A stretch of DNA of 64,000 bases from the IMG/VR virus record IMGVR_UViG_3300042519_001716; one strand, 5' to 3'. This DNA comes from a virus. Its lineage: Duplodnaviria; Heunggongvirae; Uroviricota; Caudoviricetes. The notes under the pieces are model-generated. The model saw nothing but the letters and a program-made list of their open reading frames with translations. It had not been told where the DNA came from and made no database searches. Numbering within the stretch: position 1 is the first letter of the stretch; each line of letters starts with the position of its first letter. Shown here piece by piece: positions 10,056 to 64,000 of this stretch. Made by a program: the position numbers and the translations under genes.

Positions 10056-10081
10056 TAAGCTTCCTGGTATAGGTTTGTTCA

Positions 10082-10117: not shown

Positions 10118-10129
10118 TATTTATATAAC

Positions 10130-10858: not shown

Positions 10859-10866
10859 GATGCTCG

Positions 10867-11596: not shown

Positions 11597-11640
11597 ATAG
11601 GGCTCGCAATCTCTCGATTGCTCGCTGCGAAGCAGGTAGT

Positions 11641-11685: not shown

Positions 11686-12225
11686 CTATATAAATTTAAA
11701 GATATAACCTTTAAATGATTTTACATCTCCCCTTAAAACCTTTCTAATTCTTTGACTATTTTTTCTTAAAGCAACATTTTTAAGATCGGGGTAAAAATAC
11801 CTTGTAGCTTCATTTACTGAATTAAAGGTTTTTGTTTCATTTGTTTTTTTATTAACCATAAGGACAGGTTTATCGAGTCTACCTAAAGAAACCCCAACAG
11901 TATCGATATAGTGTTTAATATTCTCATCTCCTGTGACCCATTCAAGATTCTCTATTCGATTATCATTTTTAATCAAATTAATATGATTTACTTCTGGTTT
12001 ATTTTCTGTATTAGGAATAAATGCAGTTGCAATTAATCTATGTATAAAATGTCTTTTTCTTTTATAACCATTTTGCAACGTAACATTAATATAACCTTTA
12101 TTTGTTTTTAATGGTGTGAGTAATCTATTTCTATGTTTAGAATATACCTCACCATTCATACTTACAAAATAAACTCCGTCATATCCAGGAATTTCTTTCC
12201 ATATTGATTCATTACTTAAATCCAT
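11686..12225 (-). CDS. HNH homing endonuclease with AP2-type DNA-binding region
   Basis: NGEVYSKHRNRLL..GYINVTL..HRLIATAFIPN..VNHINLIKNDNRIENLEW; typical free-standing phage HNH. Confidence 0.75.
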   Translation of the reverse strand: MDLSNESIWKEIPGYDGVYFVSMNGEVYSKHRNRLLTPLKTNKGYINVTLQNGYKRKRHFIHRLIATAFIPNTENKPEVNHINLIKNDNRIENLEWVTGDENIKHYIDTVGVSLGRLDKPVLMVNKKTNETKTFNSVNEATRYFYPDLKNVALRKNSQRIRKVLRGDVKSFKGYIFKFI

Positions 12226-21995: not shown

Positions 21996-22703
21996 TTAAT
22001 CCCAATATTTGTGTGATTGCCTAAAAAATTCAGGATTGTTTCTATTGATATATGCTTTAACCATAATGTTAAACATCCAAAAAATACCTTTTGATTTAAA
22101 TCTTCTTGGTGATGTATATATGCCGGATAAATTTAAAATTTTAAATTCTTTGACATTCACTTTCTTTGATAAAGAATAATCCTCTGCAAATAATTCCAGG
22201 GGATTATAACCACCAACTTTCCAATAAGATCGTGTGTTCCAAAGTTGAAATCCACCTATAGCAAATGGTGTTCCGGCTAGTATCGATAACCTTTGAAATA
22301 TATCAAAAACCCTAAATACCCATCTATATGGGTAATCTGTATAAAATGGTACTGTTATTAAATCTTTATGGTGTTTTAAACACTCTTCTAACATAATTGG
22401 ATTTGTTAAAAACACATCAGCATCCAGAAATAACATATAGGGTGTATTAACCAATATACTACCATTAAATCTCGCTTCTGATGGGTAACCACCCTTAATC
22501 ACCTCAATGTCTAATAGATGGCTAAAATCTCTTATTAAGTCCCTTATATGAAATAAAGAATCATATGTATCAGACACATCAGATATTATTATCCTTGTGC
22601 CATTAATATTGGTTTGTTTAGAGATATTATATACACAATCATATAATGTCCTTGACTCATTCTTGGACGGAATAACAATTGTTAAATTATTTTTTATATT
22701 CAT
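21996..22703 (-). CDS. family 2 glycosyltransferase
   Basis: LTIVIPSKNES N-terminal GT-A signature and LFLDADVFL DxD motif. Confidence 0.6.
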   Translation of the reverse strand: MNIKNNLTIVIPSKNESRTLYDCVYNISKQTNINGTRIIISDVSDTYDSLFHIRDLIRDFSHLLDIEVIKGGYPSEARFNGSILVNTPYMLFLDADVFLTNPIMLEECLKHHKDLITVPFYTDYPYRWVFRVFDIFQRLSILAGTPFAIGGFQLWNTRSYWKVGGYNPLELFAEDYSLSKKVNVKEFKILNLSGIYTSPRRFKSKGIFWMFNIMVKAYINRNNPEFFRQSHKYWD

Positions 22704-23415
22704 GTGAGCAATATATTCCGTTGTTATATGTTATATATGAATTATTTTCTATCCAGTCACCAGTGTTTAAGTATCTTATACCATCAACCATTCTGTCCTC
22801 TGGATGATGTATATGTCCACAGATTACTGAGTGACAGTGATGCTTCTTGGCTTGTCTTGTTAATTCTATTTCAAATTGTGTAATAAACTTAACAGCTTCC
22901 TTTACTTTGTCTTTTAAAAACTTGGATAACGATCGTTTCATCCCAAATTTTTTAAGTCTTCTATCAATTGTAATGGCCATATCATAACCAATAGACCCCA
23001 GAACACCCAACCATTTTAATTTAACCACACCATCATAAAGATCCCCATGTGTAATAAAAGTATTTTTCCAAATATACTCGTTGTGAATTTCAATATTTCC
23101 AAAGGAGAATTCCCCATATTCCCTTAAGAACTCATCATGGTTACCAGGAATGTAAATCACTTTACACCCATTCTTTGAATGTGATAAAATTTTTCTTAAT
23201 ACGTTTGTGTGAGACTGTGGCCAACGGAACTTTCTTTTTAATAACCAACCATCTATTATATCCCCAACCAAAAAAAGATATTCAGGTTGATATTGTTTAA
23301 GAATTGCTAAAACACCTTCGGCGTTAGAACCCTTTGATCCGAGGTGTACATCGGATATGAATAATGCTTCTATCTTCATCTTCTTATAAATATCATAATG
23401 ATCGCCCTTTCGCAT
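22687..23415 (-). CDS. LpxH-family metallophosphoesterase (UDP-2,3-diacylglucosamine pyrophosphatase-like)
   Basis: LFISDVHLG, LVGDIIDGW, IPGNHDEFL, ITHGDL and CGHIHHPE blocks align in order with E. coli LpxH motifs. Confidence 0.7.
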   Translation of the reverse strand: MRKGDHYDIYKKMKIEALFISDVHLGSKGSNAEGVLAILKQYQPEYLFLVGDIIDGWLLKRKFRWPQSHTNVLRKILSHSKNGCKVIYIPGNHDEFLREYGEFSFGNIEIHNEYIWKNTFITHGDLYDGVVKLKWLGVLGSIGYDMAITIDRRLKKFGMKRSLSKFLKDKVKEAVKFITQFEIELTRQAKKHHCHSVICGHIHHPEDRMVDGIRYLNTGDWIENNSYITYNNGIYCSHEYKK

Positions 23416-49337: not shown

Positions 49338-50501
49338 TTAATTACTTAATGGTGCTTTTATTGCTGGGTGTGATTGATAATTTTCCAATATTACATCATG
49401 ATCTCCAAATGAAAATATACCATCTCTAACATGTACTGTTGGTAGATTGAATGGTTCTCTTTTTATTTGTTCCTTAGCTTGTTCAATATGGTTTGAATAT
49501 AAATGCACATCACCTAAATTACCAATTAATTCATCGGGAACCATATTCATTTCATCCGCAATCATTTTTAATAATAAACCATAAGACGCTATGTTGAACG
49601 GTAACCCTAAGAATGTATCAACTGAACGTTGGTTCCACATTAGTGAGATTGCCCTTTTAGGAATATTGTATACTTGTAATTCTTCTCTTAATCCACCACC
49701 GAATGGAACAATGTCATCAACCATCAATTGAAACTTCTCTTCTCCTACTTTTTTCTTTAATAAATCCCACATCTCTTCTCCCGTTAATTTTCTAGTGTAT
49801 ACTTGAAACCCATAATGACAAGGCGGAAGAACCATATGTTCTAACTCACCAACATTCCAAGCACTTACCATCAATCGTCTTGAGTCTGGGTTTGTTTTAA
49901 GTTCATCAATTAAGTTTTGAATTTGGTCAATTGTTTTATCACCCTCAACATATGTATCGTTTCCAGTTAATGGATCTTTCAACGTGGTCTTAATTAATGT
50001 TTTGGTGTTCCACTGTCTCCACTGTGCACCATATATGGGACCTAACTCACCCCACTCTTCGGCAAATTCGTCATCTGTTTTAATTCTTTCAATGAATTCT
50101 TCTTGAGTTAATGGTGTTAAGTCATCAGGATTACTAAACATAATTTCAATATGTGGTTGCATTCCCATTATGTCACCACACATATATCCATCAATAAGTT
50201 CAGTTACTTCTTTAGTGTAGTTCTTGTAAGCATCACCATTCCAAATGTTACATCCGTTCATAACTAGATACTTGATGTTGGTGCTCCCACTTAAAAACCA
50301 AATTAACTCGGTCACCATTGTCTTCCAAGCCATCTTCTTAGTTGTAAGTAATGGGAACCCTTGTGACATTCTATGCCGAATTTGTCTACCAAATACTGAA
50401 ATGGTACCTGTACCAGTCCTATCACTTTTTGTGATACCATTATCTAAAATATCTTGTAATAATTCTTGATATTTTGAATCCAATGTATTCATATTTCTCA
50501 T
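49338..50501 (-). CDS. thyA: thymidylate synthase (ThyA family) with two internal insertions
   Basis: DRTGTGT, PCHY catalytic Cys, GLPFNIASY (Asn retained), GDVHLYSNH; ~45- and ~35-aa in-frame insertions relative to E. coli ThyA. Confidence 0.85.
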   Translation of the reverse strand: MRNMNTLDSKYQELLQDILDNGITKSDRTGTGTISVFGRQIRHRMSQGFPLLTTKKMAWKTMVTELIWFLSGSTNIKYLVMNGCNIWNGDAYKNYTKEVTELIDGYMCGDIMGMQPHIEIMFSNPDDLTPLTQEEFIERIKTDDEFAEEWGELGPIYGAQWRQWNTKTLIKTTLKDPLTGNDTYVEGDKTIDQIQNLIDELKTNPDSRRLMVSAWNVGELEHMVLPPCHYGFQVYTRKLTGEEMWDLLKKKVGEEKFQLMVDDIVPFGGGLREELQVYNIPKRAISLMWNQRSVDTFLGLPFNIASYGLLLKMIADEMNMVPDELIGNLGDVHLYSNHIEQAKEQIKREPFNLPTVHVRDGIFSFGDHDVILENYQSHPAIKAPLSN

Positions 50502-51590: not shown

Positions 51591-51947
51591 ATGGAATTAA
51601 GAGTAAATGGTAATAGTTTTCCAGTCGAAATGCTAACACATCCTGATGATATTCAAAAGGGTATGATGGGTAGGGAAAATCTAGATGGTTGTATGGGATT
51701 CAAACTAAAGAAGGGGTTCCATAGTTTCTATATGAAAGACTGTTTAATACCATTGGACATTATATTTGTGTTAAATGGTCGAATTAATAAGATCTTTAGG
51801 GACTGTCAGCCTTGCTCTGATGTTGATTGCGCCCATTTTACCGCAGCTGCGGATCATGTGTTTGAATTCCCTTCTGGTACTTGTTCAGACTTTAGTGAGG
51901 GAGACACAGCAAATCTTTATTTAGGAACAAAAAATAATCCGGTTTAG
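51591..51947 (+). CDS. DUF192-like protein
   Basis: FYMKDCLIPLDIIFV resembles the DUF192 (COG1430) core. Confidence 0.45.
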   Translation: MELRVNGNSFPVEMLTHPDDIQKGMMGRENLDGCMGFKLKKGFHSFYMKDCLIPLDIIFVLNGRINKIFRDCQPCSDVDCAHFTAAADHVFEFPSGTCSDFSEGDTANLYLGTKNNPV

Positions 51948-52248
51948 GATTTGTTTTTTTCTTTTTTTTACCTATATTTTATAAAGAAAATAATCAAATA
52001 AATATTTATATAAAAACATACAACTATGGGATGCGGATGTAAAAAAAAGAATGAAGACCAGCCAGTTCAGGGCCAAACTGAACCAACACCACCACCAACG
52101 CCGGAGGTTCAACAAGAACAAGTTATCCAAGTGGCGGTAGCTCTTCGAGAAATGATTGAAAATAAAGAACTTTAAGATTGATTATAGCGGATACTTTGTG
52201 TCCGTTATTTTTTACTCTTAGAGTATATAAGAATATATATTTTTAAAT

Positions 52249-52446
52249 ATGAAAGGAAACACTAAATTAACAAGTGTAACCGTCTTAGATGACGTTTACA
52301 AAAAATTCAAAGTCAAAATTATTGACGGTAGTATTAATTTTCAGAAACTGGTAAACAGATCTATGGATTTATACAATAAGAGCGAGGACTTCAGAAAACA
52401 AGTTGATAATCACGAGAGTCTAGCTTCGACAGGATCAAAGTTTTAA
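52249..52446 (+). CDS. hypothetical protein
   Basis: ORF track, 65 aa, first gene of + strand block. Confidence 0.4.
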   Translation: MKGNTKLTSVTVLDDVYKKFKVKIIDGSINFQKLVNRSMDLYNKSEDFRKQVDNHESLASTGSKF

Positions 52447-52450
52447 ATTA

Positions 52451-53806
52451 ATGAAAAAAAAGATTTTATTATTATCTGATGATTTAAGAATGACATCTGG
52501 AATCGCAACTATGTCAAAGGAAATTGTTATGGGAACAATTGATAAGTATGATTGGATACAACTAGGCGCAGCAATATCACATCCAGAGATTGGAAAAATT
52601 GTTGATGTTAATGATGATATCAGAAAGAGAACAGGTGTTGAAGACGCTAATCTTAAGATAATTCCATACAATGGTTATGGTGATATTAACATCCTTAGAA
52701 AGTTAATAAATGAAGAAAAGCCAGATGCTATCTTACACTTCACCGATCCGCATTATTGGCAATGGTTATATGATAATGAACATGAGATCAGACAACACAC
52801 ACCAATATTATATTATCACATATGGGATGATTTACCAGACCCACAATACAATAGAGATGTTTTTGAATCTTGTGATTGGTTAGGTTGTATATCTAAACAA
52901 ACATATGGAATTGTACATCGTGTTGGTAAGAGAACTGATAAAGTAACATTCAAACCATTGGAAGATTGGCAGATAAGTTATGTTCCACATGGTATCAATC
53001 CAGAAACATTTAAACCACTGGATAAAGTTTCAGATGAAATAAAAAATATTATCTTTGGTGATAAGAAGTATGATTTTGTTTTATTTTTTAACAGTAGAAA
53101 CATTAGAAGGAAACAACCAAGTGATGTTATCTATTCATTTAAATTGTTTTGTGATCAACTACCAAAAGAAAAAGCAGATAAGTGTTTATTATTAATGCAC
53201 ACAGCCGCTGTTGATGAGAACGGAACAGACTTACCAGCAGTTATCGAAGCTCTTTGTCCATATGATGTTAAGTTCACAGGATTAAAGTTAGAACAAGATA
53301 AGTTAAATGAAATATATAACCTAGTTGATTGTACTATCAACATCGCTAACAATGAAGGGTTTGGTTTAACAACAGCAGAATCATTGATGGCTGGTACACC
53401 AATTATTGTTAATGTGACTGGTGGCTTACAAGATCAATGTGGATTTGAATATAGTGCAGATGATTATATTTCAGTTGGAACGTTACATAATAAAAAAGTA
53501 CACAGCTCAATATCACATGGCGAATGGGTAGAACCGATTTGGTCATCAGCTATAAATTTAAATGGATCTGTACCAACCCCATACATTTTTGATGACAGGG
53601 TAAACGATGATGATGTTGCAAATGTTATCATGAAGATGTATAAGATAGGTAAGAAAAAAAGAAAAGCAAGAGGTTTGCTAGGTAGAGAGTTTATGATTAA
53701 CAATCTATCAAATAAAATAATGTGTGATAAAATGTCTGAAGGGATTGAGCAAGCAATCAGTAACTTCAAGCCGAGAAAGAAATTTGATTTATATAAAATT
53801 ATATGA
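52451..53806 (+). CDS. GT4-family (GT-B) glycosyltransferase
   Basis: NEGFGLTTAESLMAGTPIIVNVTGG matches the retaining GT4 E-x7-E/donor-binding signature. Confidence 0.6.
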   Translation: MKKKILLLSDDLRMTSGIATMSKEIVMGTIDKYDWIQLGAAISHPEIGKIVDVNDDIRKRTGVEDANLKIIPYNGYGDINILRKLINEEKPDAILHFTDPHYWQWLYDNEHEIRQHTPILYYHIWDDLPDPQYNRDVFESCDWLGCISKQTYGIVHRVGKRTDKVTFKPLEDWQISYVPHGINPETFKPLDKVSDEIKNIIFGDKKYDFVLFFNSRNIRRKQPSDVIYSFKLFCDQLPKEKADKCLLLMHTAAVDENGTDLPAVIEALCPYDVKFTGLKLEQDKLNEIYNLVDCTINIANNEGFGLTTAESLMAGTPIIVNVTGGLQDQCGFEYSADDYISVGTLHNKKVHSSISHGEWVEPIWSSAINLNGSVPTPYIFDDRVNDDDVANVIMKMYKIGKKKRKARGLLGREFMINNLSNKIMCDKMSEGIEQAISNFKPRKKFDLYKII

Positions 53807-55056
53807 GAAAACCATTTTTATTATTTAGAGGGCCAGTAAAAACAAGAAGTGGATATGGTGCACACTCAAGAGATTTGCTAGAAGCGTTACATAAGATGGA
53901 TATGTTTGATATTAAAATAGATAGCTGTTCATGGGGATCAACACCGTTAACCGCGTTGGAGGATGATAACATGTTTCATAAATGGATTGATTCAAATATT
54001 GTAACCAATATAAATGTTCAGCCAGATTTTTATGTGCAAGTGACAGTACCTAACGAATTTCAAACATTAGGTAAAATAAACATAGGAGTAACCGCCGGTA
54101 TTGAAACAACTGTAGCGCCAAAGAATTGGATAGACGGTTGTAACAAGATGGATATGGTTATAACAACATCTGAATTTTCAAAGGATGTTTTATTGTCAAC
54201 TGTTTATAATGAAAATGATAATGTTACTGGTAAACTAATAAAACAATATAGAATTGAAAAACCATTGTTAGTATTGTTTGAGGGTGTTGACACATCTATA
54301 TACAATAACGAGTATACTGGAATCGACCTAGACATAAAAGAAGATTTTGCTTATCTGTTTGTTGGTCATTGGTTGAAAGGAGATACTGGTCAAGACAGAA
54401 AAGATGTGGGGATGTTGATTAGATGTTTTACAGAAGCATTTAAAGATCAAGAAGATCAACCAGCACTTGTTTTAAAGACATCTGCGGCCTCTTTCTCTAT
54501 TAAACAAAGGGAAGAGTTCAGAAAGAAAATTGAAGGCCTTGTTGGTCAAATTGATAACCCACCTTCGATATACCTTTTGTTCGGTGATTTAAGTAACAAA
54601 GAGATGAACGAGCTTTATAATCATCCAAAAATAAAAGCTATGGTTACTCTCACCAAGGGTGAGGGATTTGGTAGACCTCTACTAGAATTTACAATGACAG
54701 GTAAACCCGTTATTGCATCTAATTGGTCTGGGCATAAAGATTTTTTACCAATGGATAAAGCTATTATGATTGGTGGTAAACTTACGGATGTAGATCAAAG
54801 TGCTATTGACGATTTTATTATTAAAGGGTCTAAATGGTTCACAGCAAATTATAATGAAGTTGCAGAGGTTTTAAAATTGGTTAAAATAGATTATGAAAAG
54901 TTTTTATCTAAATCAGAAACATTAAGAATTGAAAACAAAGAAAAGTTTTCTATGGAAAAAATGATGGAAAAGTTTAGATCGTTTATCCCAGATGAGGCCA
55001 AAGAAGAACCAATACAAAAGCAATTAAATTTACCTAAATTAAATAAAATAAAGTAG
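53803..55056 (+). CDS. GT-B glycosyltransferase (GT4-like)
   Basis: TKGEGFGRPLLEFTMTGKPVIASNWSG; ATGA overlap with upstream GT. Confidence 0.5.
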   Translation: MRKPFLLFRGPVKTRSGYGAHSRDLLEALHKMDMFDIKIDSCSWGSTPLTALEDDNMFHKWIDSNIVTNINVQPDFYVQVTVPNEFQTLGKINIGVTAGIETTVAPKNWIDGCNKMDMVITTSEFSKDVLLSTVYNENDNVTGKLIKQYRIEKPLLVLFEGVDTSIYNNEYTGIDLDIKEDFAYLFVGHWLKGDTGQDRKDVGMLIRCFTEAFKDQEDQPALVLKTSAASFSIKQREEFRKKIEGLVGQIDNPPSIYLLFGDLSNKEMNELYNHPKIKAMVTLTKGEGFGRPLLEFTMTGKPVIASNWSGHKDFLPMDKAIMIGGKLTDVDQSAIDDFIIKGSKWFTANYNEVAEVLKLVKIDYEKFLSKSETLRIENKEKFSMEKMMEKFRSFIPDEAKEEPIQKQLNLPKLNKIK

Positions 55057-55057
55057 T

Positions 55058-55336
55058 ATGCCAAAAAGGAAAAGAGAATCAATATTTTTAACTACACCTA
55101 CCCCGCAATCATCTTCTTTCACAATTGCTGACGCAAAGTATATTGATACATGTGAATGGTGTTTTCAATTCGATGATGACCAACCGATAGTATTTGCAAA
55201 AGGGTCAAAAAAAGAGTTTGCATCTGAACCTAAAATAAGTTTTACCTTAACAAATAGAACAGATAGTACCATGACTTTTTTTGATGATAAAACAAAAAAG
55301 AAATTAAAGATCTTCACAAGAGAAAAGGCCATTTAA
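55058..55336 (+). CDS. hypothetical protein
   Basis: ORF track, 92 aa. Confidence 0.4.
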   Translation: MPKRKRESIFLTTPTPQSSSFTIADAKYIDTCEWCFQFDDDQPIVFAKGSKKEFASEPKISFTLTNRTDSTMTFFDDKTKKKLKIFTREKAI

Positions 55337-55337
55337 T

Positions 55338-56183
55338 ATGAAAATTTTAGTAACAGGCGGGGCTGGGTTTATTGGTACTAATTTAATTAAAAGATTGGTA
55401 TCTGAGAAACATGATGTTGTTTCACTGGACAATTATGATAGTGGGTCGGTGTCTAACCATATTGATGGGTGTAACTATCATAGTGGCGATATTGAAAGTA
55501 TATCACTTATGGATAAAGATTTTGATTTAATTTATCATTTGGCTGCGCTTAGTAGAATACAACCATCATTTGAAAATCCATCAGAGTTCTTTAGAGTAAA
55601 TGTAATTGGTACTGAGGCTGTATGTGAGTGGGCTAGAAAATTGAATATAAGAGTTGTATACAGTGGGTCATCTTCAAGATGGCACGACCCGTTTCAATCA
55701 CCTTATGCTATGTATAAGAAGTTAGGTGAGGATGTGTGTAAGATGTATAAGAAAGTATTTGGTAGTAAAATTGAAATTACTCGCTTCTACAATGTTTATG
55801 GGCCCAATGAAATAACTGAAGGCAAATGGGCAGCAGTCATTGGTTTATGGAGAGGTCAGGTTAAAAAAAATCACCCTATTACAATTGTGGGTGATGGTAA
55901 ACAACGTAGAGATTTTACACACGTTGATGATATTGTTGATGGGTTAATTAGGATAGGTTTTTCAAATGAAGAACATGAGGATGCGTGGGAATTGGGTACT
56001 GGTTTTAATTATTCCTTAAATGAAGTGGCCTATATGTTTGAACAAAGGTTTAATGCAGTAAAAGTATATATGGCTGAGCAAAAAGGGAATTATAGAGAGA
56101 CTAAACGTGAAAACAACGACGCGTTAAATAGACTAGGATGGTCACCTAAAGACAGACTTAAAAATTATATAGATACTTTATGA
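55338..56183 (+). CDS. NAD-dependent sugar epimerase/dehydratase (extended SDR)
   Basis: MKILVTGGAGFIGTNL Rossmann motif and YAMYKK catalytic YxxxK. Confidence 0.75.
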   Translation: MKILVTGGAGFIGTNLIKRLVSEKHDVVSLDNYDSGSVSNHIDGCNYHSGDIESISLMDKDFDLIYHLAALSRIQPSFENPSEFFRVNVIGTEAVCEWARKLNIRVVYSGSSSRWHDPFQSPYAMYKKLGEDVCKMYKKVFGSKIEITRFYNVYGPNEITEGKWAAVIGLWRGQVKKNHPITIVGDGKQRRDFTHVDDIVDGLIRIGFSNEEHEDAWELGTGFNYSLNEVAYMFEQRFNAVKVYMAEQKGNYRETKRENNDALNRLGWSPKDRLKNYIDTL

Positions 56184-56800
56184 AAATAAGCTTCGCCATT
56201 ACAGTATGTAATGAACTAGAGGAGATAAAAAGATTAGTTCCATTTATACTTGAGCACAAAGGAATTCAGGATGAAATTGTTATTTTATTTGACGATAAAA
56301 ATGGTAACAAAGAGGTACTAGATTTTCTTTTACCTTTTAATATTAAACCCAACGTACAAGTATGGAGAGGTTTAGATTGGGATAACAACTTTGCCGATTG
56401 GAAGAATAAGTTAAACGAGTATTGTACAGGAGATTATATATTTCAGTTAGATGCTGATGAAATGGTTACTGAGTTTTTAATTAAAAATGTAAGTCAAGTA
56501 ATTCAAGAAAATAATGAGGTTGATCTTTTTTATCTAGCAAGGGTTAATACTGTTGATGGTATAACCATGGAACATATTAATAAGTGGAGATGGAATTTGG
56601 ATAAAGAAGGTAGAATTAATTTTCCAGATTATCAAGGTAGGATCTATAAGTCTAATCTTAAATGGGAGGGTAAAGTTCATGAAAAAATAACAGGAGTCAA
56701 ATATTATGCAGTACTACCGTTAGAGGAAGAATATTGTTTGATACATCATAAATCAATTAATAAACAAGAGAGTCAAAACAATTATTATAACACAATTTAA
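56180..56800 (+). CDS. family 2 glycosyltransferase-like protein
   Basis: ISFAITVCNE N-terminus and FQLDADE DxD motif. Confidence 0.5.
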   Translation: MKISFAITVCNELEEIKRLVPFILEHKGIQDEIVILFDDKNGNKEVLDFLLPFNIKPNVQVWRGLDWDNNFADWKNKLNEYCTGDYIFQLDADEMVTEFLIKNVSQVIQENNEVDLFYLARVNTVDGITMEHINKWRWNLDKEGRINFPDYQGRIYKSNLKWEGKVHEKITGVKYYAVLPLEEEYCLIHHKSINKQESQNNYYNTI

Positions 56801-56804
56801 TCAA

Positions 56805-57350
56805 ATGGAAGTATTGGAAAATATCTACAATAAAAGATGTGAAATACCATCAGACATTAATGAACATTTACCAACATTAAAAAAATATGCTGAAGAGTGT
56901 GATCATATAACCGAAATGGGGGTTAGATGGGTAGTGTCTACTTTCGCGTTTATGATGGGTAAACCTAAAAAATTAATATCAATCGATATTAACCCAGTTG
57001 AAAAACATGGTATCCAAACAATAGATTTAATATCATTAGCTAAAACCGCTGGTGTTGAATTTGAATTTGTTTTAGGTGACACAACAGAAATAGAAATTGA
57101 AGAAACAGATTTTTTATTTATAGATACCCTACACACATATACTCAACTAAAAAAAGAGTTAGCTTTGCATCCAAGTAAAGTTAAAAAATACATTGGCTTT
57201 CATGATACCACAACATTTGCTCAAGTGGGTGAATATAAAGAAGTGGGGTTGTGGCCAGCAATAGAGGAGTTTCTAAGTAGTAATCCTGAATGGGTTATTG
57301 CTGAAAAATTTGAAAACAATAATGGTTTAACAATTTTAAAAAAAATATAA
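56805..57350 (+). CDS. class I SAM-dependent methyltransferase-like (Methyltransf_24-type)
   Basis: ITEMGVRWVVST and FLFIDTLHTY blocks resemble O-methyltransferase family 24. Confidence 0.4.
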   Translation: MEVLENIYNKRCEIPSDINEHLPTLKKYAEECDHITEMGVRWVVSTFAFMMGKPKKLISIDINPVEKHGIQTIDLISLAKTAGVEFEFVLGDTTEIEIEETDFLFIDTLHTYTQLKKELALHPSKVKKYIGFHDTTTFAQVGEYKEVGLWPAIEEFLSSNPEWVIAEKFENNNGLTILKKI

Positions 57351-58106
57351 ATGAACAAACTAATATTAGCAACCGGTAGCAATCTAAACTACCTACACAA
57401 GATGACAGGTTATTTGAAGTCTATTGAAGAGAACTCGAATTTCGATTCAAATTATTTAATCTTCTTAGGTGATGATGAAATGAAGATGAAGTATCAAAAA
57501 ATAACAATAGCAAATGTTTATGAAAAAGATTTGGAAGTTGTACCATCAAACTATTGTATACAACATGGTGAGTTTTTAAAGTCAAAGTTATTCAATGAAT
57601 CAACAAATGATGATGATGTTATTTTCTTTACTGATGGCGACATTAAAATACAAAGACCTTTGAGTGAGGATGAAATAAAACAATTTAAAAACTTTAAAGA
57701 TGATGATGTATATGTGGGTTATAACGAATCACCAACAGACACTTTATATAACGAATCTTTAAGGTTAGGTATAATCAATAGTGAATCAGATTTATTAAAG
57801 TATGATCTAAAGAAGATTAAGGTTTATAATACCGGTGTACTAGCAATGAATAAGAAAACATGGTTAAAATTAATGAATCAATTCATTGAGTTGTATCCGT
57901 TAGTTAATAATACTTTTCACCACTATGCTAAACAACAATGGTTATTATCGCTATTGATAAACACCAAGGGCTACAATGTTTATGAGATGCCGTATGATAT
58001 TCATAATCATCTACATTACCCTAGCCCCGCTGGCACACAACGAGATAATAACGGAACAGTATATTATAATAATAAAAAGGTTTTATTTAAACACAAATGG
58101 GATTAA
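57351..58106 (+). CDS. putative nucleotide-diphospho-sugar transferase
   Basis: LILATGSNLNY N-terminus and FFTDGDIKI DxD-like motif; weak. Confidence 0.3.
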   Translation: MNKLILATGSNLNYLHKMTGYLKSIEENSNFDSNYLIFLGDDEMKMKYQKITIANVYEKDLEVVPSNYCIQHGEFLKSKLFNESTNDDDVIFFTDGDIKIQRPLSEDEIKQFKNFKDDDVYVGYNESPTDTLYNESLRLGIINSESDLLKYDLKKIKVYNTGVLAMNKKTWLKLMNQFIELYPLVNNTFHHYAKQQWLLSLLINTKGYNVYEMPYDIHNHLHYPSPAGTQRDNNGTVYYNNKKVLFKHKWD

Positions 58107-58107
58107 A

Positions 58108-58764
58108 ATGGAAAAAGAAATTAAATTAATTAGGTCATTAGAAATTGACAAAATAACTGAAAAAGAATTAGAGGACTTCTTACCTAAATTAGGAATGAAT
58201 GATGAGTGCCTAAGGGAAATGCCTGAAGAGTTATCAGAATACTATGGTAAAGGTCTTAAGTTTTGGCAATATCCAAATCAATTTAGTAAGTATCTTAAAC
58301 AACTTTCTAAATATGAAATTAACTCTTACTTAGAAATTGGTTGTAGATGGGGTGGAACATTCATTATCACAAATGAAATATTAAAATTAAAAAATCAAGA
58401 TGTTAAATCATATGCATGTGATTTGATACCGATATGTGGTGTGCTAACTGAATATAAAAATTATTCTGACTTCACATATGTTCACGAATCAAGTTTTGGT
58501 TTAACTAAGAGTCACGTGGGTGATCAGATTGATTTGATTTTAATCGACGCCGAACATTCATACGATGCAGTTAAAAAAGACTTAGAGGTTGCTAAACAAT
58601 TCAATCCAAAGTATGTTGTATTCCATGACATAACTAACGATGTGTGTAGGGGCGTAAATCAATTTTGGGAAGAAATAAAAAACGACTATAAACATCATGA
58701 GTTCATTGAACAATATGATAGTGTTGTTGGTACATACTTAGGAATCGGATTAATCGAATTATAA
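58108..58764 (+). CDS. class I SAM-dependent methyltransferase (Methyltransf_24-like); start moved to ATG after upstream stop
   Basis: YLEIGCRWGGTF and LILIDAEHSYDAVKKDLE blocks; track ORF starts inside upstream gene. Confidence 0.5.
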   Translation: MEKEIKLIRSLEIDKITEKELEDFLPKLGMNDECLREMPEELSEYYGKGLKFWQYPNQFSKYLKQLSKYEINSYLEIGCRWGGTFIITNEILKLKNQDVKSYACDLIPICGVLTEYKNYSDFTYVHESSFGLTKSHVGDQIDLILIDAEHSYDAVKKDLEVAKQFNPKYVVFHDITNDVCRGVNQFWEEIKNDYKHHEFIEQYDSVVGTYLGIGLIEL

Positions 58765-58765
58765 T

Positions 58766-59851
58766 ATGTATGATTATTTAATTGTTGGGGCGGGATTTTA
58801 CGGATCTATATGTGCGCATGAGTTAACCAAAGCTGGTAAAAAGGTTTTAGTTATTGACAATAGAGAACATATAGGTGGTAACTGTTACACAAAAAATAGA
58901 GACGGAATTAATGTACACGAATATGGTGCACATATATTTCATACATCAAATGAAGAAGTATGGAAATGGATTAATCAATTTGTGACGTTTAACAATTATG
59001 TTAATTCACCTGTTGCATATTATCGTGGTAAATTATATTCTTTACCGTTTAATATGTGGACATTCAATCAACTGTGGGGAATTACAACACCTGATGAAGC
59101 TAAACAAAAAATAGAAGAGCAATCTGGTGGTATTAGTGAGCCTAAAAACTTAGAAGAACAAGCGATTAAGTTAGTGGGTAAAGATGTTTATGAAAAATTA
59201 ATTAAGGGGTATACAGAAAAGCAATGGAGAAAGCCATGTGATCAACTACCTAAGGAAATTATTAAACGATTACCAGTTAGATTTACATATAACAACAACT
59301 ACTTTAATGACAAATATCAAGGTATTCCTATTGGTGGTTACACACAGGTGTTTGAAAAACTATTAGATGGTGTTGATGTTAAATTAAATTGTGATTATTT
59401 CAAGGATGAATTACCAGAACATGATAAGGTTATATATACCGGGCCAATTGATATGTTCTTTGATTACAAATATGGTGAACTAGAATATAAAACAACAAAA
59501 TTCGACCATATTCATTTTACTGATAAATCAAACTATCAAGGTAATGCTGTTGTTAATTTTACCGATAAAGAAATACCATATATAAGAATAATAGAACATA
59601 AACACTTTGAATTTGCTGACACACCAACGACCTGGATTACAATTGAATATCCAACAGAATATAAGGCCGGTGTAACTGAACCTTATTATCCGGTAAATGA
59701 TGTTGAGAATAATAAAAAATATCAGCAATATAAATTAGAATCAGATAAGTTTGAAAATATACATTTTGGTGGTAGATTAGCAGAATACAAATACTATGAT
59801 ATGCATCAGGTAATTGAGTCGGCATTAAATTATATAAAAAAAGAGATATGA
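58766..59851 (+). CDS. glf: UDP-galactopyranose mutase
   Basis: YDYLIVGAGFYGSICAHEL..KKVLVIDNREHIGGNCYT FAD-binding N-terminus characteristic of Glf; 361 aa. Confidence 0.8.
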   Translation: MYDYLIVGAGFYGSICAHELTKAGKKVLVIDNREHIGGNCYTKNRDGINVHEYGAHIFHTSNEEVWKWINQFVTFNNYVNSPVAYYRGKLYSLPFNMWTFNQLWGITTPDEAKQKIEEQSGGISEPKNLEEQAIKLVGKDVYEKLIKGYTEKQWRKPCDQLPKEIIKRLPVRFTYNNNYFNDKYQGIPIGGYTQVFEKLLDGVDVKLNCDYFKDELPEHDKVIYTGPIDMFFDYKYGELEYKTTKFDHIHFTDKSNYQGNAVVNFTDKEIPYIRIIEHKHFEFADTPTTWITIEYPTEYKAGVTEPYYPVNDVENNKKYQQYKLESDKFENIHFGGRLAEYKYYDMHQVIESALNYIKKEI

Positions 59852-60954
59852 ATATAACATTTGTTTTAGCCGTTTATAATAAATTAGATTTAACAAAGGA
59901 ATGTTATAAACGTCTTCGTGATGTTTACCCAACAGCACCTTTAGTGATTAGTAGTGGTGGGTCAAGTGATGGAACAAAAGAATGGTTGGCGTCATTAGAA
60001 GATGATAATTTATCTTATCTACATGATGATGAAAGGTTAACATTCTCTGACACATATAACACCGGAATTAAATTAGTTGATACCGAGAAACTCGTTTTAA
60101 TACATAACGATATGGTTATTGGTGAAGGATTCCTAGAAGCCATAGAAAGATTATTAGAACCAAATATGTTGTTGTCATATACAACTATTGAACCACCAAT
60201 ATTCAGAGGTCACCAGAGACCAGGTAAAGTATTATTGGATCTTGGTAGTGGGTTTGATAATTTTGACGATTTTAATTTTAATAGCTATGTTAAACAATGG
60301 AATCAAAACGATAAATTATATGATGGCGCGGTATTTTTTATGTCTGGATATAAAAAGATGTTTGAAGATGTTGGTTTCTTTGATGGTTTTAGTTTTTTTC
60401 CGTGCTTCTGTGAAGATGATGATTTTTTAATCAGAGCAAAATTAAAAGGTTATAACTTAAAGACTTGTGAATCAGCCATAACATATCATTTTGTTTCTCA
60501 AACATCTAGATTCGGTGATGATTTCAAAAAAGATAGAGGATTGTATGAGGTTTGTTCAATTAGAAACTTTGTTAGAAAATGGGGAATACCATACACAGCG
60601 TTTAATGAAATGAGATATTGGGAGGAAAAGGATTTTAAATACAAAACCTTTAATATGGGGTTAACAACCAGGAGCAGATCTTATTTAATGAGATTGGAAC
60701 CATTCTTCGATAAAATCAATTTAGGAGCCATTCCTGAGGACTATATAGAGAATGAACAGAAGAATACCAAATATGATTTAAGATCAAAATTTACCCTTAC
60801 AGAAGACGTTGATGTGATGATTTATGAAACTAACCCATTTGATGAAGAGGATCTAGAAACACTTAAGAAATTAAGGCTCTCAATTCCTTATTATGAACCA
60901 GGGGAATACCAAATAGGTAATATGTTGATAGAAATAAAAAAGGAGCTTAATTAG
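59848..60954 (+). CDS. family 2 glycosyltransferase
   Basis: ITFVLAVYNK N-terminus typical of GT-A; ATGA overlap with glf. Confidence 0.5.
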   Translation: MNITFVLAVYNKLDLTKECYKRLRDVYPTAPLVISSGGSSDGTKEWLASLEDDNLSYLHDDERLTFSDTYNTGIKLVDTEKLVLIHNDMVIGEGFLEAIERLLEPNMLLSYTTIEPPIFRGHQRPGKVLLDLGSGFDNFDDFNFNSYVKQWNQNDKLYDGAVFFMSGYKKMFEDVGFFDGFSFFPCFCEDDDFLIRAKLKGYNLKTCESAITYHFVSQTSRFGDDFKKDRGLYEVCSIRNFVRKWGIPYTAFNEMRYWEEKDFKYKTFNMGLTTRSRSYLMRLEPFFDKINLGAIPEDYIENEQKNTKYDLRSKFTLTEDVDVMIYETNPFDEEDLETLKKLRLSIPYYEPGEYQIGNMLIEIKKELN

Positions 60955-60968
60955 CTCCTTCTTTTTTA
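60935..60968. terminator. bidirectional Rho-independent terminator (AAAAAAGGAGCT-TAAT-TAGCTCC-TTCTTTTTT)
   Basis: at the convergence of the + strand glycan operon and the - strand operon. Confidence 0.6.
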
Positions 60969-61426
60969 ACTTCCTTTTTGATCAGTTTAAATAGTACCTG
61001 ATACTTGTCTTTCGTTTTACCCGCATCCTTTAAATCTTCTTTGGTAATTTCAGGATATTCAATTTCAATTTCTTGATTTAAAAGCACACCATATTCATTA
61101 TCAAATTCAATGTATTGAGGGTTAATAACTTTACCAGTTACGTTACCTTCATCATCCTTAACTTCATTGTACATTTTTACTAAGACACCACCATTACCAT
61201 CTTCTTCTCCATACTTTTTGATTAATTCATCTCTTAATGTCTCAACCTTAGTTCTCTCACTTTTAAGTTCCGTTGAAAAGTCACTCAATTCGTATTTCAA
61301 AATGATTGAAAGGTTTTGTTTACTGAACCCCTCAAACACTTGTTCTCCGGTTTGTGGTTCGATATACCCGTTAATTTCGCTTTCTAATTGTAAAACATCT
61401 CCTAGTTTTAAAGTAATTTTGTCCAT
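60947..61426 (-). CDS. hypothetical protein
   Basis: ORF track, 159 aa, K/E-rich. Confidence 0.45.
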   Translation of the reverse strand: MDKITLKLGDVLQLESEINGYIEPQTGEQVFEGFSKQNLSIILKYELSDFSTELKSERTKVETLRDELIKKYGEEDGNGGVLVKMYNEVKDDEGNVTGKVINPQYIEFDNEYGVLLNQEIEIEYPEITKEDLKDAGKTKDKYQVLFKLIKKEVKKEGAN

Positions 61427-61478
61427 AAATTTTTATTTTTCTTTTATAATATATATTTTATTTTTAAAAAAGTCAACC

Positions 61479-62486
61479 CTACAGAACTGTAAATATTGCA
61501 TAAGTTATCATCATTGATATCCAAATTATTAATGCTTTTAGATATGTTAGAAACCCAGTATGAAAATACCTTTGGCCAATAGGTAAGCACTTATGTGATG
61601 GTGAAATAAGGTATGCTGAATATTCTAAGGTAAAGAATAAAACAAAATAATGCATCCCAAATACACTCGTTAATAAACTAACAATTCCAGCATATTTTGC
61701 TGAAGAACCTAATAGAAATGAGGCTAAAAACCCTAACACAGAGACAATCAATATGTTAGATGGTGCGTTGTATTGTTTTATTATTGCTTCTATCTGTGTA
61801 TAATAAGATCCAACAAGGTTACCAAGAATAATAACAAAAGCAACAATCCATATTAGTTCCCAGTCGATATAGCCCAATATTTTACTCCAACTTTTAGAGT
61901 AATATACTAACCATATTGTGAATCCTGTGAAGAAACCAAAATAGTATTCAGTAAAAAACACACACATTAATATGGTTACTAAAAATGGTATAACCACCAT
62001 CGTTATGTTTTGCATATTAATTGGTTCATCTTTAACTTCGATATCTATTTCATCATCTTTTAATGATAAGATATAATAAGTAATATATAACGCTGAGATT
62101 AAAAGCAATGGCCAGATATATGACATGAATTGCATATAGGTTAAACTTAACACAGCCATTGGAATAATAACAGTTTTCTCTAAAGGTGACCATAGATAAT
62201 AGTGATGTGTTGCTAGATAGTCGATGATGCCAAACTTCTTACGTTTCTTATTATCAACCGGTGCAATACTATTCAACATAGACGCCGATAACGCAACGCG
62301 ACCAGGGATCGGTAAGATCCCACCAAATAGTGATACTAAGAATACCACCATTCTCTTTGACTTAACTTTTTGTTCAAGTAGTCTGAAGATGTCCATAAGG
62401 TATCCTCTTTCTTTGAGGATACCTGTTACGAACATAATGAATATTAAATAGACAAGGAATACTTGACCGTTGATTAGAATCTCCAT
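61479..62486 (-). CDS. polytopic inner-membrane protein (~9-10 TM; transporter or glycan polymerase/flippase-like)
   Basis: hydrophobic helices throughout 335 aa. Confidence 0.4.
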   Translation of the reverse strand: MEILINGQVFLVYLIFIMFVTGILKERGYLMDIFRLLEQKVKSKRMVVFLVSLFGGILPIPGRVALSASMLNSIAPVDNKKRKKFGIIDYLATHHYYLWSPLEKTVIIPMAVLSLTYMQFMSYIWPLLLISALYITYYILSLKDDEIDIEVKDEPINMQNITMVVIPFLVTILMCVFFTEYYFGFFTGFTIWLVYYSKSWSKILGYIDWELIWIVAFVIILGNLVGSYYTQIEAIIKQYNAPSNILIVSVLGFLASFLLGSSAKYAGIVSLLTSVFGMHYFVLFFTLEYSAYLISPSHKCLPIGQRYFHTGFLTYLKALIIWISMMITYAIFTVL

Positions 62487-63358
62487 GCGAATATAATTGT
62501 GGTTCTTGATTGTTTTGCGTCTTGATTTAAACCTGGCATATGCTCAATGTTTAAATAACCCTTATTGTTGAAACGATATTGTACAAGTGGTCCAATATAC
62601 CATTCTTTAGATCCACCTTCGAAGTCATTATATCTAAACATATGTGACACACCTAATGTTAAATCATTATTGATTATGTTTCCATATGATGCGGTATATG
62701 CGTATTCTCTTTCTTGTTCTTCTTTGGTTCCAGCTAAGTTACCCTCGTAAATTGCATTAAACCCCCAAATACCATTCTTACCAATTCTATCACCTAATAA
62801 TAATTTTGGTTCAATACCCCAACGACCATCTAACATTTTGGTTTCGAAGTATAGTGTTGGGTTACCCCACACTTTACCCCAGTCGGCAAGAGCATAACGA
62901 AACTCCCAAGAGAATCCTCTCCATTTGAATTCCTTGTCACCATCTTCACCGTCATAAACTGTGTGAGAATAAAGATCTAATTGAAGTCTGTTACCTAAAC
63001 CGAATGTGAATTCATCTCTCATTCTAATTTGTGCCGGTCCGTTTCTTCTTTGTCTGATGTCAAACCACTTCTCGTACATTGCGGTACCTGGTGGGTTCAT
63101 CACATAAACTCTAGTGGATGCAAACATTCTCATTGTTGTCCAAAGTGGTTGACCATAAGGACCTACCTTGGTCATTAAAGGTACCTTCTTTGCTGTAACA
63201 ACAATTTCTTGTAATTGATTAGGGACTGTGTCCGTTTGAACTTTTAAGGATTGTTCTGAACCTTTCTGAATTGCACTACTACTGTATTGTCCAAATGACA
63301 TAGTGGTAGTAAACAATAGTGCTAACATTAGCGATAGCATTGTGATTGTTTTTCTCAT
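62474..63358 (-). CDS. outer-membrane beta-barrel protein with signal peptide and TonB-box-like QEIVVTA segment (start set to internal Met)
   Basis: MRKTITMLSLMLALLFTTTMSFGQ signal; C-terminal TTIIFAWRF aromatic terminal strand. Confidence 0.45.
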   Translation of the reverse strand: MRKTITMLSLMLALLFTTTMSFGQYSSSAIQKGSEQSLKVQTDTVPNQLQEIVVTAKKVPLMTKVGPYGQPLWTTMRMFASTRVYVMNPPGTAMYEKWFDIRQRRNGPAQIRMRDEFTFGLGNRLQLDLYSHTVYDGEDGDKEFKWRGFSWEFRYALADWGKVWGNPTLYFETKMLDGRWGIEPKLLLGDRIGKNGIWGFNAIYEGNLAGTKEEQEREYAYTASYGNIINNDLTLGVSHMFRYNDFEGGSKEWYIGPLVQYRFNNKGYLNIEHMPGLNQDAKQSRTTIIFAWRF

Positions 63359-63390
63359 TTTGTTTTTGTTTAAGAAAAGTTTATAAAATT

Positions 63391-63481
63391 GCGGGGAGGA
63401 AGAGATTCGGACTCTCGATTGAATGTTAAGTCCAATAGCAGCTTCGGAGGCTGTCGGTTTAAACCACTCACCCACCTCCCC
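63391..63481 (-). promoter_or_regulatory. structured 5' leader candidate (outer GGGGAGG/CCTCCCC stem enclosing two or three internal hairpins)
   Basis: GCGGGGAGG at 63391-63399 pairs with CCTCCCC at 63475-63481; inner GAGA/TCTC, CAGC/GCTG and GGTTTAAACC elements. Confidence 0.4.
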
Positions 63482-63524
63482 TTAAATTTATTATTAATAT
63501 AAACAAAAAATATCTGATAATCAA

Positions 63525-63953
63525 CTATCTTTCAATTAGAAATACTCCTAATCCATTCCAAAAATCTTTTGAGTCTTCACCAGATGTATATAACTCCTTA
63601 TGATGGGTTATCATTAAGTTGTTATCTTCAATAAATTTATCGAAGGCCCCACTGTTCCAATTCCAATCATCCATAATTACTATGGTTTCTTTGGAGAAAA
63701 TTGGTAGCATGTTTGTTAATGCAACATATTGATCATGATACTTTGTTTCACCATCATAAAAAATAATATCAACATATGGTAGCGTTTTAAAATCAAATGT
63801 TTGGTAATCAGTTTTGTATACCGATATGTTATTCACATTACCAAATCGTTTTACATTATGTAAAAATTCTTCTTGTGGTAAAATATCTATATTGTGTTTG
63901 TAGTAGTTACCTAACTTCTGACTAACACCCTTTGGTGTTAAATTAGGTGACAT
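63525..63953 (-). CDS. methyltransferase-like protein (Methyltransf_24-like fold suspected)
   Basis: IIFYDGETKYHDQ..ETIVIMDDW resembles the FIDxxHxY/DD blocks of the two MTases in the + strand cluster; in-frame stop two codons upstream of the ATG, so complete. Confidence 0.35.
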   Translation of the reverse strand: MSPNLTPKGVSQKLGNYYKHNIDILPQEEFLHNVKRFGNVNNISVYKTDYQTFDFKTLPYVDIIFYDGETKYHDQYVALTNMLPIFSKETIVIMDDWNWNSGAFDKFIEDNNLMITHHKELYTSGEDSKDFWNGLGVFLIER

Positions 63954-64000
63954 AAAATTATCAATTGCAATTGATTTAATATCATTACCATATATCGCAG

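Follow-up and report, generated by a model that had tools for sequence, protein, structure and literature searches.

Phage-borne glf genes, phage glycosyltransferase (GT) clusters, glycosylation of virion proteins and autonomous viral glycosylation are already known, as are the annotated clusters of sugar-related genes in the records of Flavobacterium phage immuto and Microcystis phage Mel-JY01. Here, an operon for glycan assembly at positions 52249 to 60954 (+ strand) of the IMG/VR virus record IMGVR_UViG_3300042519_001716 (Caudoviricetes) is described; the whole stretch analysed, 64,000 nucleotides in length, is referred to as the window. The operon is a Glf/methyl version of this known, functionally unassigned kind of phage locus. 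Four GT genes (GT4a, GT4b, GT2a and GT2b) form a fixed frame around a variable cassette, which in the window includes glf, the gene of UDP-galactopyranose mutase. This frame-plus-variable-cassette organisation is the most informative feature of the locus and was missed in the first-pass annotation of the sequence. The encoded enzymes are predicted to build a methylated, galactofuranose-type sugar chain, the target of which would most likely be the phage particle itself.

The clusters of immuto (160 kb) and Mel-JY01 (190 kb), both T4-like phages, resemble the window in the succession of a small open reading frame (ORF), GT4a, GT4b, a further small ORF, GT2a, tailoring genes and a GT in the position of GT2b. 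Immuto, a myovirus with a Gp23-type capsid protein, has the same order GT4a-GT4b-GT2a-GT2b; its GT4a, GT4b and GT2a are 44–50% identical to those of the window (44% for GT4b and immuto gp91) and its GT2b (gp102) 28%. The first three GTs of Mel-JY01 are 34–50% identical to the window proteins, GT2b gave no match there at an E-value of 1e-4, and the fourth position is taken by an annotated COG1216 glycosyltransferase. Homologues in immuto were found for 10 of the 109 window ORFs, six of which are frame or cassette genes of the operon. The cassettes differ, since that of immuto encodes an amino-sugar pathway with two WecE/DegT aminotransferases, a PglB-like acetyltransferase and a mannosyltransferase and lacks Glf, whereas the window has Glf, o251, MT24a and o181. 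No functional study of either cluster was found in the literature. Both phages are presumably lytic, and the immuto record contains no annotated integrase.

For the "moraphages", aquatic (freshwater) jumbo phages of Bacteroidota with genomes of 200–307 kb and predicted Flavobacteriia hosts, four core putative glycosyltransferase orthogroups were reported in 2025 and their role was left open (PMC12619734). A Rhodothermus phage stands in the moraphage capsid tree of that paper, and the IMG/VR relatives of the window reach 211–335 kb. The moraphages and the phages considered here probably belong to the same or to overlapping lineages, and the hosts of the window's lineage are probably Flavobacteriia. 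In contrast to the present comparison, the moraphage paper gives neither gene order nor a cassette or its variability. For mycobacteriophages, virion glycosylation has been demonstrated by experiment, the glycans being attached to capsid and tail-tube subunits at their C-termini (Freeman et al. 2023, as cited in PMC12619734); to the extent that such work was found cited, experimentally shown phage virion glycosylation is limited to this group. By that account, soluble phage GTs act in the cytoplasm on structural proteins without a lipid carrier. The same mechanism is proposed for the window; the demonstrated system is that of the mycobacteriophages, which are siphoviruses of Actinobacteria. 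Chloroviruses and Mimiviridae use their own nucleoside diphosphate (NDP)-sugar enzymes, GTs and methyltransferases to place methylated glycans on capsid or fibril proteins, and in the chlorovirus group the capsid protein is glycosylated by cytoplasmic enzymes that the virus itself encodes (PMC4691112). They are eukaryotic viruses, they do not share gene order with the window, and the likeness of GT4a to chlorovirus B736L is confined to one half of the GT-B fold, the Rossmann domain at the C-terminus.

The lytic myovirus RL38J1, a phage of Rhizobium, has a Glf (44.5% identical to that of the window), GTs and a ThyA homologue (PMC13326640), but the ThyA homologue of the window is without the changes D169N, N177D and L143E, and the window has far more tailoring genes. 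Many GTs and NDP-sugar epimerases are also found in the large cyanomyoviruses P-SSM2, S-SCSM1 and S-SCSM2R, T4-like aquatic phages of the Kyanoviridae (PMC12801897), for which no four-GT frame with an internal cassette has been described; GenBank searches showed no frame-GT homology to them. Bacterial O-antigen and capsule loci (Wzx/Wzy or ABC type) contain the same enzyme families and likewise have conserved flanks around a hypervariable, horizontally shuffled middle. The window frame differs from them in having no initiating phosphoglycosyltransferase, flippase, polymerase, chain-length regulator or exporter and in being phage-borne instead of chromosomal. It also differs from the GtrABC/Oac modules of serotype-converting prophages, which lie beside the integrase and att site of a temperate phage and encode the flippase GtrA, the bactoprenol GT GtrB and a polytopic, serotype-specific Gtr; the operon encodes no polytopic proteins. 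No description of the frame-plus-hypervariable-cassette organisation, the gene-precise shuffling, the absence of lipid-carrier machinery, the association with one capsid lineage or the capsid-fragment mini-gene reported below was found in the literature.

The operon consists of 11 plus-strand ORFs, from o65 (52249) to GT2b (60954), with all junctions between −4 and +4 nt, and the block is coding throughout. Its gene layout and ORF coordinates, including ATGA overlaps at 53803, 56180 and 59848, are as given in the first-pass annotation, which was right on the common direction of the genes and counted ten of them instead of 11. The gene products comprise two GT4 and two GT2 enzymes, a GT6/GT8-like GT-A protein (o251), a short-chain dehydrogenase/reductase (SDR), Glf and two Methyltransf_24 (MT24)-type methyltransferases, one firmly and one weakly assigned. 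The number of GTs is five because the structure model of o251 matches GT6/GT8 enzymes. A terminator-like hairpin (52184..52208, +; 11-bp stem followed by a T run, a pattern match of a consensus scan only) lies between the upstream DUF192 gene and the operon. At the other end, the bidirectional terminator that had been predicted is borne out by a hairpin at 60936..60964, which overlaps two convergent stop codons and has a stem of 8–12 bp with T runs on each side.

IMG/VR contains 424 relatives of GT4a, the largest of their contigs reaching 335 kb. For comparison, 80 IMG/VR loci were fetched, 58 of which carry both ends of the frame (complete loci). The comparison gives a fixed frame with the order o65, GT4a, GT4b, small ORFs, GT2a, variable stretch, GT2b and convergent o159, and the frame genes are approximately 50–92% identical between the 80 loci and the window. 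The variable stretch contains 0 to about 12 genes, so that the 58 complete loci fall into 30 architectures, the minimal one consisting of the four GTs only. Cassette genes of the relatives encode further GT2 enzymes, TOD1/MUCI70-like transferases, several MT24 and other class I methyltransferases, DegT aminotransferases, hexapeptide acyltransferases, a PhyH dioxygenase, KAS III, a ketoreductase-type SDR and DUF3431 proteins. The closest relatives, L002 and L003, share about 83% nucleotide identity with the window across the frame and differ from it by gene-precise insertions or deletions of the SDR gene, o181 and glf. In the 80 loci, among them those with the 30 complete-frame architectures, 774 ORFs are located between GT4a and GT2b, none of which exceeds two hydrophobic segments; hence, no initiating phosphoglycosyltransferase, flippase, polymerase, ligase or polyprenyl-phosphate transferase is encoded in this interval. 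Families of initiating phosphoglycosyltransferases (WbaP/WecA type) were likewise absent from the Pfam matches of the operon and of the relatives' loci, and the sole polytopic protein in the vicinity of the operon is a DUF401 protein encoded on the opposite strand. The island is a local allele of a glycan-assembly locus common to a lineage of large T4-like aquatic phages. A phage-carried pathway of this kind had been called unusual in the first-pass annotation, which is overstated: glf occurs in 90 GenBank phage records, the frame is found in immuto and its first three genes in Mel-JY01, GT4a relatives are numerous in IMG/VR, and the moraphages have their four core GT orthogroups.

The island is a native phage operon. 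Its relative synonymous codon usage (RSCU) correlates with that of the region from 11.6 to 51.6 kb with r = 0.989, above every control block of the same size (0.941–0.984), and G+C content (GC) and tetranucleotide usage match the surrounding region as well. No junction at 51.5–52.3 kb and no break in codon usage appeared in the composition analysis, which bears out the phage-like composition noted earlier; the island is not host DNA, as its codon usage matches that of the neighbouring phage genes. Profile scans covered approximately 40 of the 109 window ORFs; matches were to phage-type or mobile-element families (HNH/NUMOD4 endonuclease, GP88, T5orf172, ArdC-like, a giant M23/glucosaminidase protein and NlpC/P60). 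Among the scanned ORFs, neither host core genes nor an integrase or att-type junction was recognised, and the sole tRNA gene lies inside the module convergent to the operon, not at a compositional junction. In a search of 185,579 bacterial genomes (one per species), the single real match of GT4a was a 248-kb contig (CBFHJJ010000001.1, L167) in a metagenome-assembled genome bin of Flavobacteriaceae. Its gene order, thyA-DUF192-GT4a-GT4b-SDR-GT2a-GT2b-o159, is that of the phage loci; the contig probably represents a jumbo phage, the genome of which was put into the wrong bin or binned together with that of its host, and as such gives a hint on the host. A host O-antigen island or prophage junction, which the first-pass annotation had named as the finding that would overturn its view of a phage-carried island, was rejected given the uniform composition, the lack of host core genes in the scanned ORFs and the absence of GT4a from bacterial genomes except this phage-like contig. 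At the DNA level, only a thyA fragment matched GenBank phages.

Among the GenBank phages, the distribution of the frame follows that of one capsid lineage. Besides immuto and Mel-JY01, GT4a alone gave more distant matches, to Rhodothermus phage RM378 and to an uncultured phage of 484 kb. The capsid proteins nearest to that of immuto are found in exactly those GenBank phages that have GT4a homologues (Mel-JY01 54%, LR756508 51% and RM378 39% identity, the next one dropping to 28%). Because of this coincidence, the frame appears to behave like a vertically inherited hallmark travelling with the structural module and not like a sporadic moron.

A further link to the capsid was observed in the small ORFs of the frame. 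In most relatives, a mini-gene between GT4b and GT2a (69–142 aa) copies a strand-plus-spine-helix segment of the Gp23-type major capsid protein. It matches Pfam Gp23 (9.6e-12), and the hidden Markov model of the family aligns with residues 297–361 of the immuto capsid protein (3e-18) and residues 260–312 of T4 gp23 (5e-12); examples are located at L061:12830-13093, L053:6850-7278 and L006:13116-13376. A capsid-protein search for the sub-lineage of the window returned immuto-like contigs only. A degenerate DNA pattern for IDAEAELT was found in 120 stretches, of which at least 114 lie in frames open for 350 aa or more, consistent with full-length capsid genes; none of the 120 stretches lay on a frame-bearing contig and no further mini-genes were obtained. 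The frame of the window also contains o92 (55058..55336, +), a small conserved protein whose family occurs in 63 loci. It has a CEWCFQFDD core and a basic N-terminus rich in Ser, Thr and Pro (MPKRKRESIFLTTPTPQSSS); its AlphaFold model was unusable (pLDDT 45). Most small ORFs of the frame, those of the o92 and capsid-fragment families, begin with M-x-FKFF-x-G, and many end with RERQ or GG..RA. The o92 of the window differs in beginning with MPKRKRESIFLTTPTPQSSS in place of this motif, which in the others could be a targeting or docking peptide. The first gene of the operon, o65 (52249..52446, +; 65 aa), ends 4 nt ahead of GT4a, its cluster is present in 80 loci, and it is 38% identical to the ORF immediately 5' of the first GT gene of immuto.

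The assignments of the frame GTs held in profile searches. GT4a (52451..53806, +), a GT4-like enzyme of the GT-B type, matched Pfam Glycos_transf_1 (3e-7; 30.6 bits against a cutoff of 26.4) and PHROG 2170, annotated as "glycosyltransferase" (6e-18). The same two profiles were matched by the GT4-like GT4b (53803..55056, +; in 80 loci) with 4.5e-6 (26.7 bits) and 2e-19, both enzymes being just past the Pfam cutoff. The best solved relative of the GT4a family profile is chlorovirus B736L (1.2e-10), followed by the next match at 6e-6. GT2a (56180..56800, +; in 78 loci), a GT-A enzyme of family GT2, matched Glycos_transf_2 (8e-8), and its best genuine PDB matches, both weak, were the flagellin glycosyltransferase GmaR (3.5e-4) and the peptide S-glycosyltransferase SunS (0.02). 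Matches of GT2a to TALE repeats in the PDB were rejected as artefacts, no single stretch being significant. GT2b (59848..60954, +; in 58 loci) combines an N-terminal GT2 domain (Glycos_transf_2 1.6e-9, residues 5–105) with an uncharacterised C-terminal half and gave no match in a PDB sequence search. None of the GTs reached a curated cutoff in the NCBIfam search. All five GTs of the window are free of transmembrane segments, and in this they agree with virion glycosylation of the mycobacteriophage type, in which soluble phage GTs work without a lipid carrier.

The cassette of the window contains five genes. An SDR of the NDP-sugar epimerase/dehydratase type (55338..56183, +) matched Pfam Epimerase with 1e-45 and reached no NCBIfam equivalog level; its gene is located ahead of GT2a in the window and behind GT2b in L002 and L003. 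Glf (58766..59851, +) is a UDP-galactopyranose mutase, as had been annotated: it matched Pfam GLF with 1.4e-72 and the E. coli enzyme (1i8t) over its full length (residues 1–358, 8.5e-140), and NAD_binding_8 (2.5e-23) covers the N-terminal FAD-binding Rossmann motif. An identical Glf protein was found on contigs of 50–200 kb in many assemblies. The two MT24-like methyltransferases that had been described in the block fared differently. MT24a (58108..58764, +; 218 aa), a candidate sugar O-methyltransferase, lies above the Methyltransf_24 cutoff (5e-7; 30.9 bits vs 26.3), whereas o181 (56805..57350, +; 181 aa), found in only five loci, is a weakly assigned, probable class I methyltransferase (MT24/CmcI-like) with a match to RMNT_CmcI below the cutoff (E 0.006; 16.7 bits vs 23.2) and hhalign probabilities of 88–94% to MT24-type clusters across 36–77 columns. 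The gene product that had been called nucleotide-sugar-transferase-like, o251 (57351..58106, +; 251 aa), had no match in Pfam, NCBIfam or PDB sequence searches. It has 216 metagenomic homologues with an invariant DxD motif (D95-x-D97), and its AlphaFold model (pLDDT 95.8) is that of a GT-A, retaining-type GT with the galactosyltransferase fold (GT6/GT8-like). Foldseek matched it to alpha-1,3-galactosyltransferase, ABO transferases and LgtC with a probability of 1.0 and a TM-score of about 0.6. Viral GT8-like proteins match as well, and a GT from S-SCSM1 is a structural neighbour.

Glf is encoded in 8 of the 58 complete loci, always behind a GT (o251 or a GT2_4 protein) and usually also behind an MT24 methyltransferase. 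L002 and L003 have o251 and MT24a but no Glf. Hence, o251 is not a galactofuranosyltransferase in the strict sense, and the effect of Glf may be to change the ring form of a residue which is added as pyranose in the relatives.

Taken with these assignments, the locus is best read as serving to glycosylate, in the cytoplasm, an acceptor that the phage itself makes, probably a protein of the virion; this is a tentative view held with somewhat less than even confidence. GT4a, GT4b, GT2a and GT2b, soluble and vertically inherited, would work in the cytoplasm and assemble a conserved core glycan. Its acceptor would be encoded by the phage and would most likely be one of the structural proteins of the virion, for instance the Gp23-type capsid protein. 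The cassette genes would supply and tailor the outer sugars. At the level of enzyme identity, not of flux, the SDR would provide an epimerised or deoxy NDP-sugar and Glf would convert UDP-galactopyranose to UDP-galactofuranose; o251 or a GT2 enzyme might then add a galacto-type residue, and MT24a, perhaps together with o181, might O-methylate the product. We infer the acceptor, the order of the reactions and the transferase that uses UDP-galactofuranose. Retention of the frame in phages of different recorded host phyla argues for a conserved acceptor supplied by the phage, and a hypervariable cassette with gene-precise insertions and deletions is as expected for an exposed, diversifying glycan. 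The restriction to one capsid lineage, the lack of lipid-carrier machinery between GT4a and GT2b, the relation to B736L, the matches to GmaR and SunS, the capsid-fragment mini-gene and the sugar-free DNA of immuto point circumstantially to the virion, which is the best fit of the targets considered.

Several points weigh against this reading. The case for glycosylated virion proteins in the lineage is circumstantial, the 64 kb of the window contain no structural genes, and neither the window nor L002 and L003, which are closest to it, have the capsid-fragment mini-gene. B736L, GmaR and SunS resemble the frame enzymes weakly and at the level of the fold. The absence of transmembrane proteins does not exclude the use of a host carrier or flippase, because GT4 and GT2 enzymes are soluble or peripheral also when their acceptors are small molecules or linked to lipids. 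In addition, Microcystis as host of Mel-JY01 is taken as recorded in the entry of that phage.

The same enzymes could in principle serve to remodel the host envelope, which is rather unlikely. The phage GTs and tailoring enzymes would then act at the inner membrane face on lipid-linked lipopolysaccharide (LPS), O-antigen or capsule intermediates of the host, relying on its carrier, flippase and ligase, and the altered cell surface would result in superinfection exclusion or prevent adsorption to lysing cells. GT4, GT2, SDR, Glf and MT24 proteins are standard parts of O-antigen and capsule loci, the hypervariability of the cassette is like the variation of O-antigen loci, and "LPS/cell-wall" clusters of large cyanomyoviruses are usually read in this way (PMC12801897). 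The window operon moreover faces a convergent module that encodes a polytopic membrane protein and a secreted protein, the latter possibly of the outer membrane, but this module is present in only 23 of the 80 loci and is replaced by tail-fibre-like genes in others. An initiating transferase, flippase, polymerase or ligase occurs in none of the 30 architectures, and apart from the phage-like contig the genes are absent from bacterial genomes (as searched with GT4a). The frame GTs are 28–50% identical across phages of different recorded host phyla, whereas the host acceptors would differ, and different cassettes stand beside one and the same downstream fibre-like gene (L040 vs L066). Still less likely is another cytoplasmic glycoconjugate with a role in takeover or anti-defence, such as a glycolipid, a small molecule or thiol-like metabolite, or a non-virion protein of phage or host. 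Among NCBIfam families, GT4a comes nearest to transferases for small molecules and lipids, namely BshA, MshA and monoglucosyl-diacylglycerol synthase, and the small conserved o65 and o92 within the operon could be acceptors. These similarities are weak, however, all lying far under the curated cutoffs; four to ten transferases and extensive tailoring imply an oligosaccharide and not a simple conjugate, and hypervariability is hard to square with an intracellular metabolite.

Hypermodification of DNA, in which the GTs would glycosylate a modified base against restriction and Glf would supply UDP-galactofuranose as proposed for RL38J1, was missing from the two targets named in the first-pass annotation (virion proteins and the host surface). 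It has to be taken seriously as a rival: the glycosyl-5-hydroxycytosine pathway proposed for RL38J1 and Pootjesviridae includes Glf (PMC13326640), and many of the 90 GenBank phage records with glf are from phages of Rhizobium (22 records), Agrobacterium (5) and Aeromonas (19), with others in uncultured human-gut contigs or at the ends of Streptococcus prophage records. DNA glucosylation was also named as a possible role in the moraphage paper (PMC12619734), and a thymidylate synthase homologue (ThyA; 49338..50501, −; Pfam Thymidylat_synt 2e-96) is encoded 2 kb upstream of the operon and conserved beside the frame in 63 loci. In an alignment with the E. coli enzyme, L143, C146, D169 and N177 are retained by the window protein, which is therefore a canonical dTMP synthase. 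The changes D169N, N177D and L143D/E, diagnostic of 5-hydroxy- and 5-hydroxymethyl-pyrimidine synthases (PMC13326640), are not present in this protein. No other base-modifying gene was recognised among the scanned ORFs (approximately 40 of 109) of the 64 kb of visible genome, and the deazaguanine genes of immuto have no homologues in the window. Immuto, which has the same frame, contains no glycosylated nucleoside in its virion DNA: liquid chromatography with UV and mass spectrometric detection revealed canonical dA, dC and dT and the full replacement of dG by non-glycosylated fdPreQ1 (PMC10516641). Cassettes with aminotransferase, acyltransferase, KAS III and dioxygenase genes also represent, in our judgement, more tailoring than a DNA glycan seems to need. 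Glycosylation of DNA is considered very unlikely.

A more specific form of the virion-protein reading, which appears possible and is rated as doubtful, is that of a serotype-like virion glycosylation locus in widespread aquatic T4-like phages of Bacteroidota. The frame would make a core glycan on the capsid or a different virion protein, the recombining cassette would set a strain-specific outer glycan, and the mini-gene would act as adaptor or acceptor mimic in many members. The outer glycan would then be methylated galactofuranose in the window and N-acylated amino sugars in others, and phage "glycotypes" would be under diversifying selection comparable to that of bacterial O-antigens. If the virion is the target, environmental phages diversify their surface glycans as bacteria do their O-antigens, which bears on adsorption, grazing, particle stickiness and evasion of defence. 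Even with the host envelope or DNA as target, the locus would offer a wealth of sugar-tailoring enzymes that are as yet uncharacterised. Since a cultured relative exists, immuto on Flavobacterium sp. LMO8 with its sugar-free DNA chemistry, the locus is directly testable.

The genes flanking the operon are conserved to different degrees. Upstream, a DUF192 protein (51591..51947, +; Pfam DUF192 1e-13) is encoded as conserved neighbour of the frame in 79 of the fetched loci. The ThyA homologue of the window is larger than that of E. coli (387 vs 264 aa) because of three insertions of about 46, 19 and 47 aa, and the immuto protein is likewise enlarged (423 aa). The convergent block at the end of the frame begins with o159 (60947..61426, −; 159 aa), conserved in 43 loci and without a Pfam or NCBIfam match. 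It is followed by an accessory module with a transporter-like DUF401 membrane protein (61479..62396, −; Pfam DUF401 6e-11; eight hydrophobic segments), a secreted protein, o294 (62474..63358, −), a tRNA gene (63392..63481, −) and a third Methyltransf_24 gene, MT24c (63525..64000, −; 1.6e-6; 29.4 bits vs a cutoff of 26.3). The frame of MT24c is open to the window edge, relatives being 221 aa long, and an exact-protein look-up of the partial sequence gave no match because the ORF is cut by the end of the window. The first-pass description of this block as a polytopic membrane protein, an outer-membrane beta-barrel and a third MT24-like gene was correct for the first and the last and omitted o159 and the tRNA gene. 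The beta-barrel is unconfirmed: o294 is a candidate with an N-terminal signal-like segment and a C-terminal Phe (...FAWRF) and has no Pfam or PDB match; its relatives include a 590-aa variant with an identical signal peptide.

The tRNA (90 nt), predicted by ARAGORN, combines a long variable arm of class II with the anticodon CCG (Arg codon CGG). In bacteria, long class II variable arms are typical of Leu, Ser and Tyr tRNAs. The Rfam tRNA score of 50 bits (E 4e-10) was obtained with a short stretch, and a gathering search of the whole window missed this tRNA. It was also present in 2 of the 12 relatives checked (L003:20194-20284 and L029:18512-18602).

The genes converging on the frame vary among the relatives, with ORFs of 571 aa in L023, 547 aa in L068 and 346 and 332 aa in L047 and L080. 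Some relatives have tail-fibre-like convergent genes, of which one encodes a Peptidase_S74 intramolecular chaperone domain and another a Gly-rich protein, and one fibre-like gene occurs beside different cassettes (L040 vs L066). Others, like the window, have the module of DUF401 protein, secreted protein and MT24c, which extends to a Cys-rich protein and a radical SAM protein. The Cys-rich C-terminus of the latter is SPASM-like by eye; Pfam matched the Radical_SAM domain only.

Outside the operon and its flanks, positions 1 to 11600 of the window are a compositional outlier (GC 0.396 and GC at third codon positions 0.394, vs 0.327 and 0.268 for 11.6–51.6 kb), with an RSCU correlation to the rest of 0.82–0.84 and plus-strand genes that include GP88, DUF6915, DUF4241 and an Api92-like domain. 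Host DNA with ribosomal-protein-like genes was considered for this GC-richer part and rejected, the matches being to the phage-type families GP88 and DUF6915, with an HNH/NUMOD4 endonuclease gene just past it (11686–12225). A B12-binding radical SAM protein of 712 aa (15680–17818, −; Radical_SAM 7e-12, B12-binding 9e-10) is also encoded in the window. An additional GT2 glycosyltransferase gene outside the island (Pfam 2.6e-9) overlaps a gene for a calcineurin-like phosphoesterase, the pair being located at 21996–22703 (−) and 22687–23415 (−).

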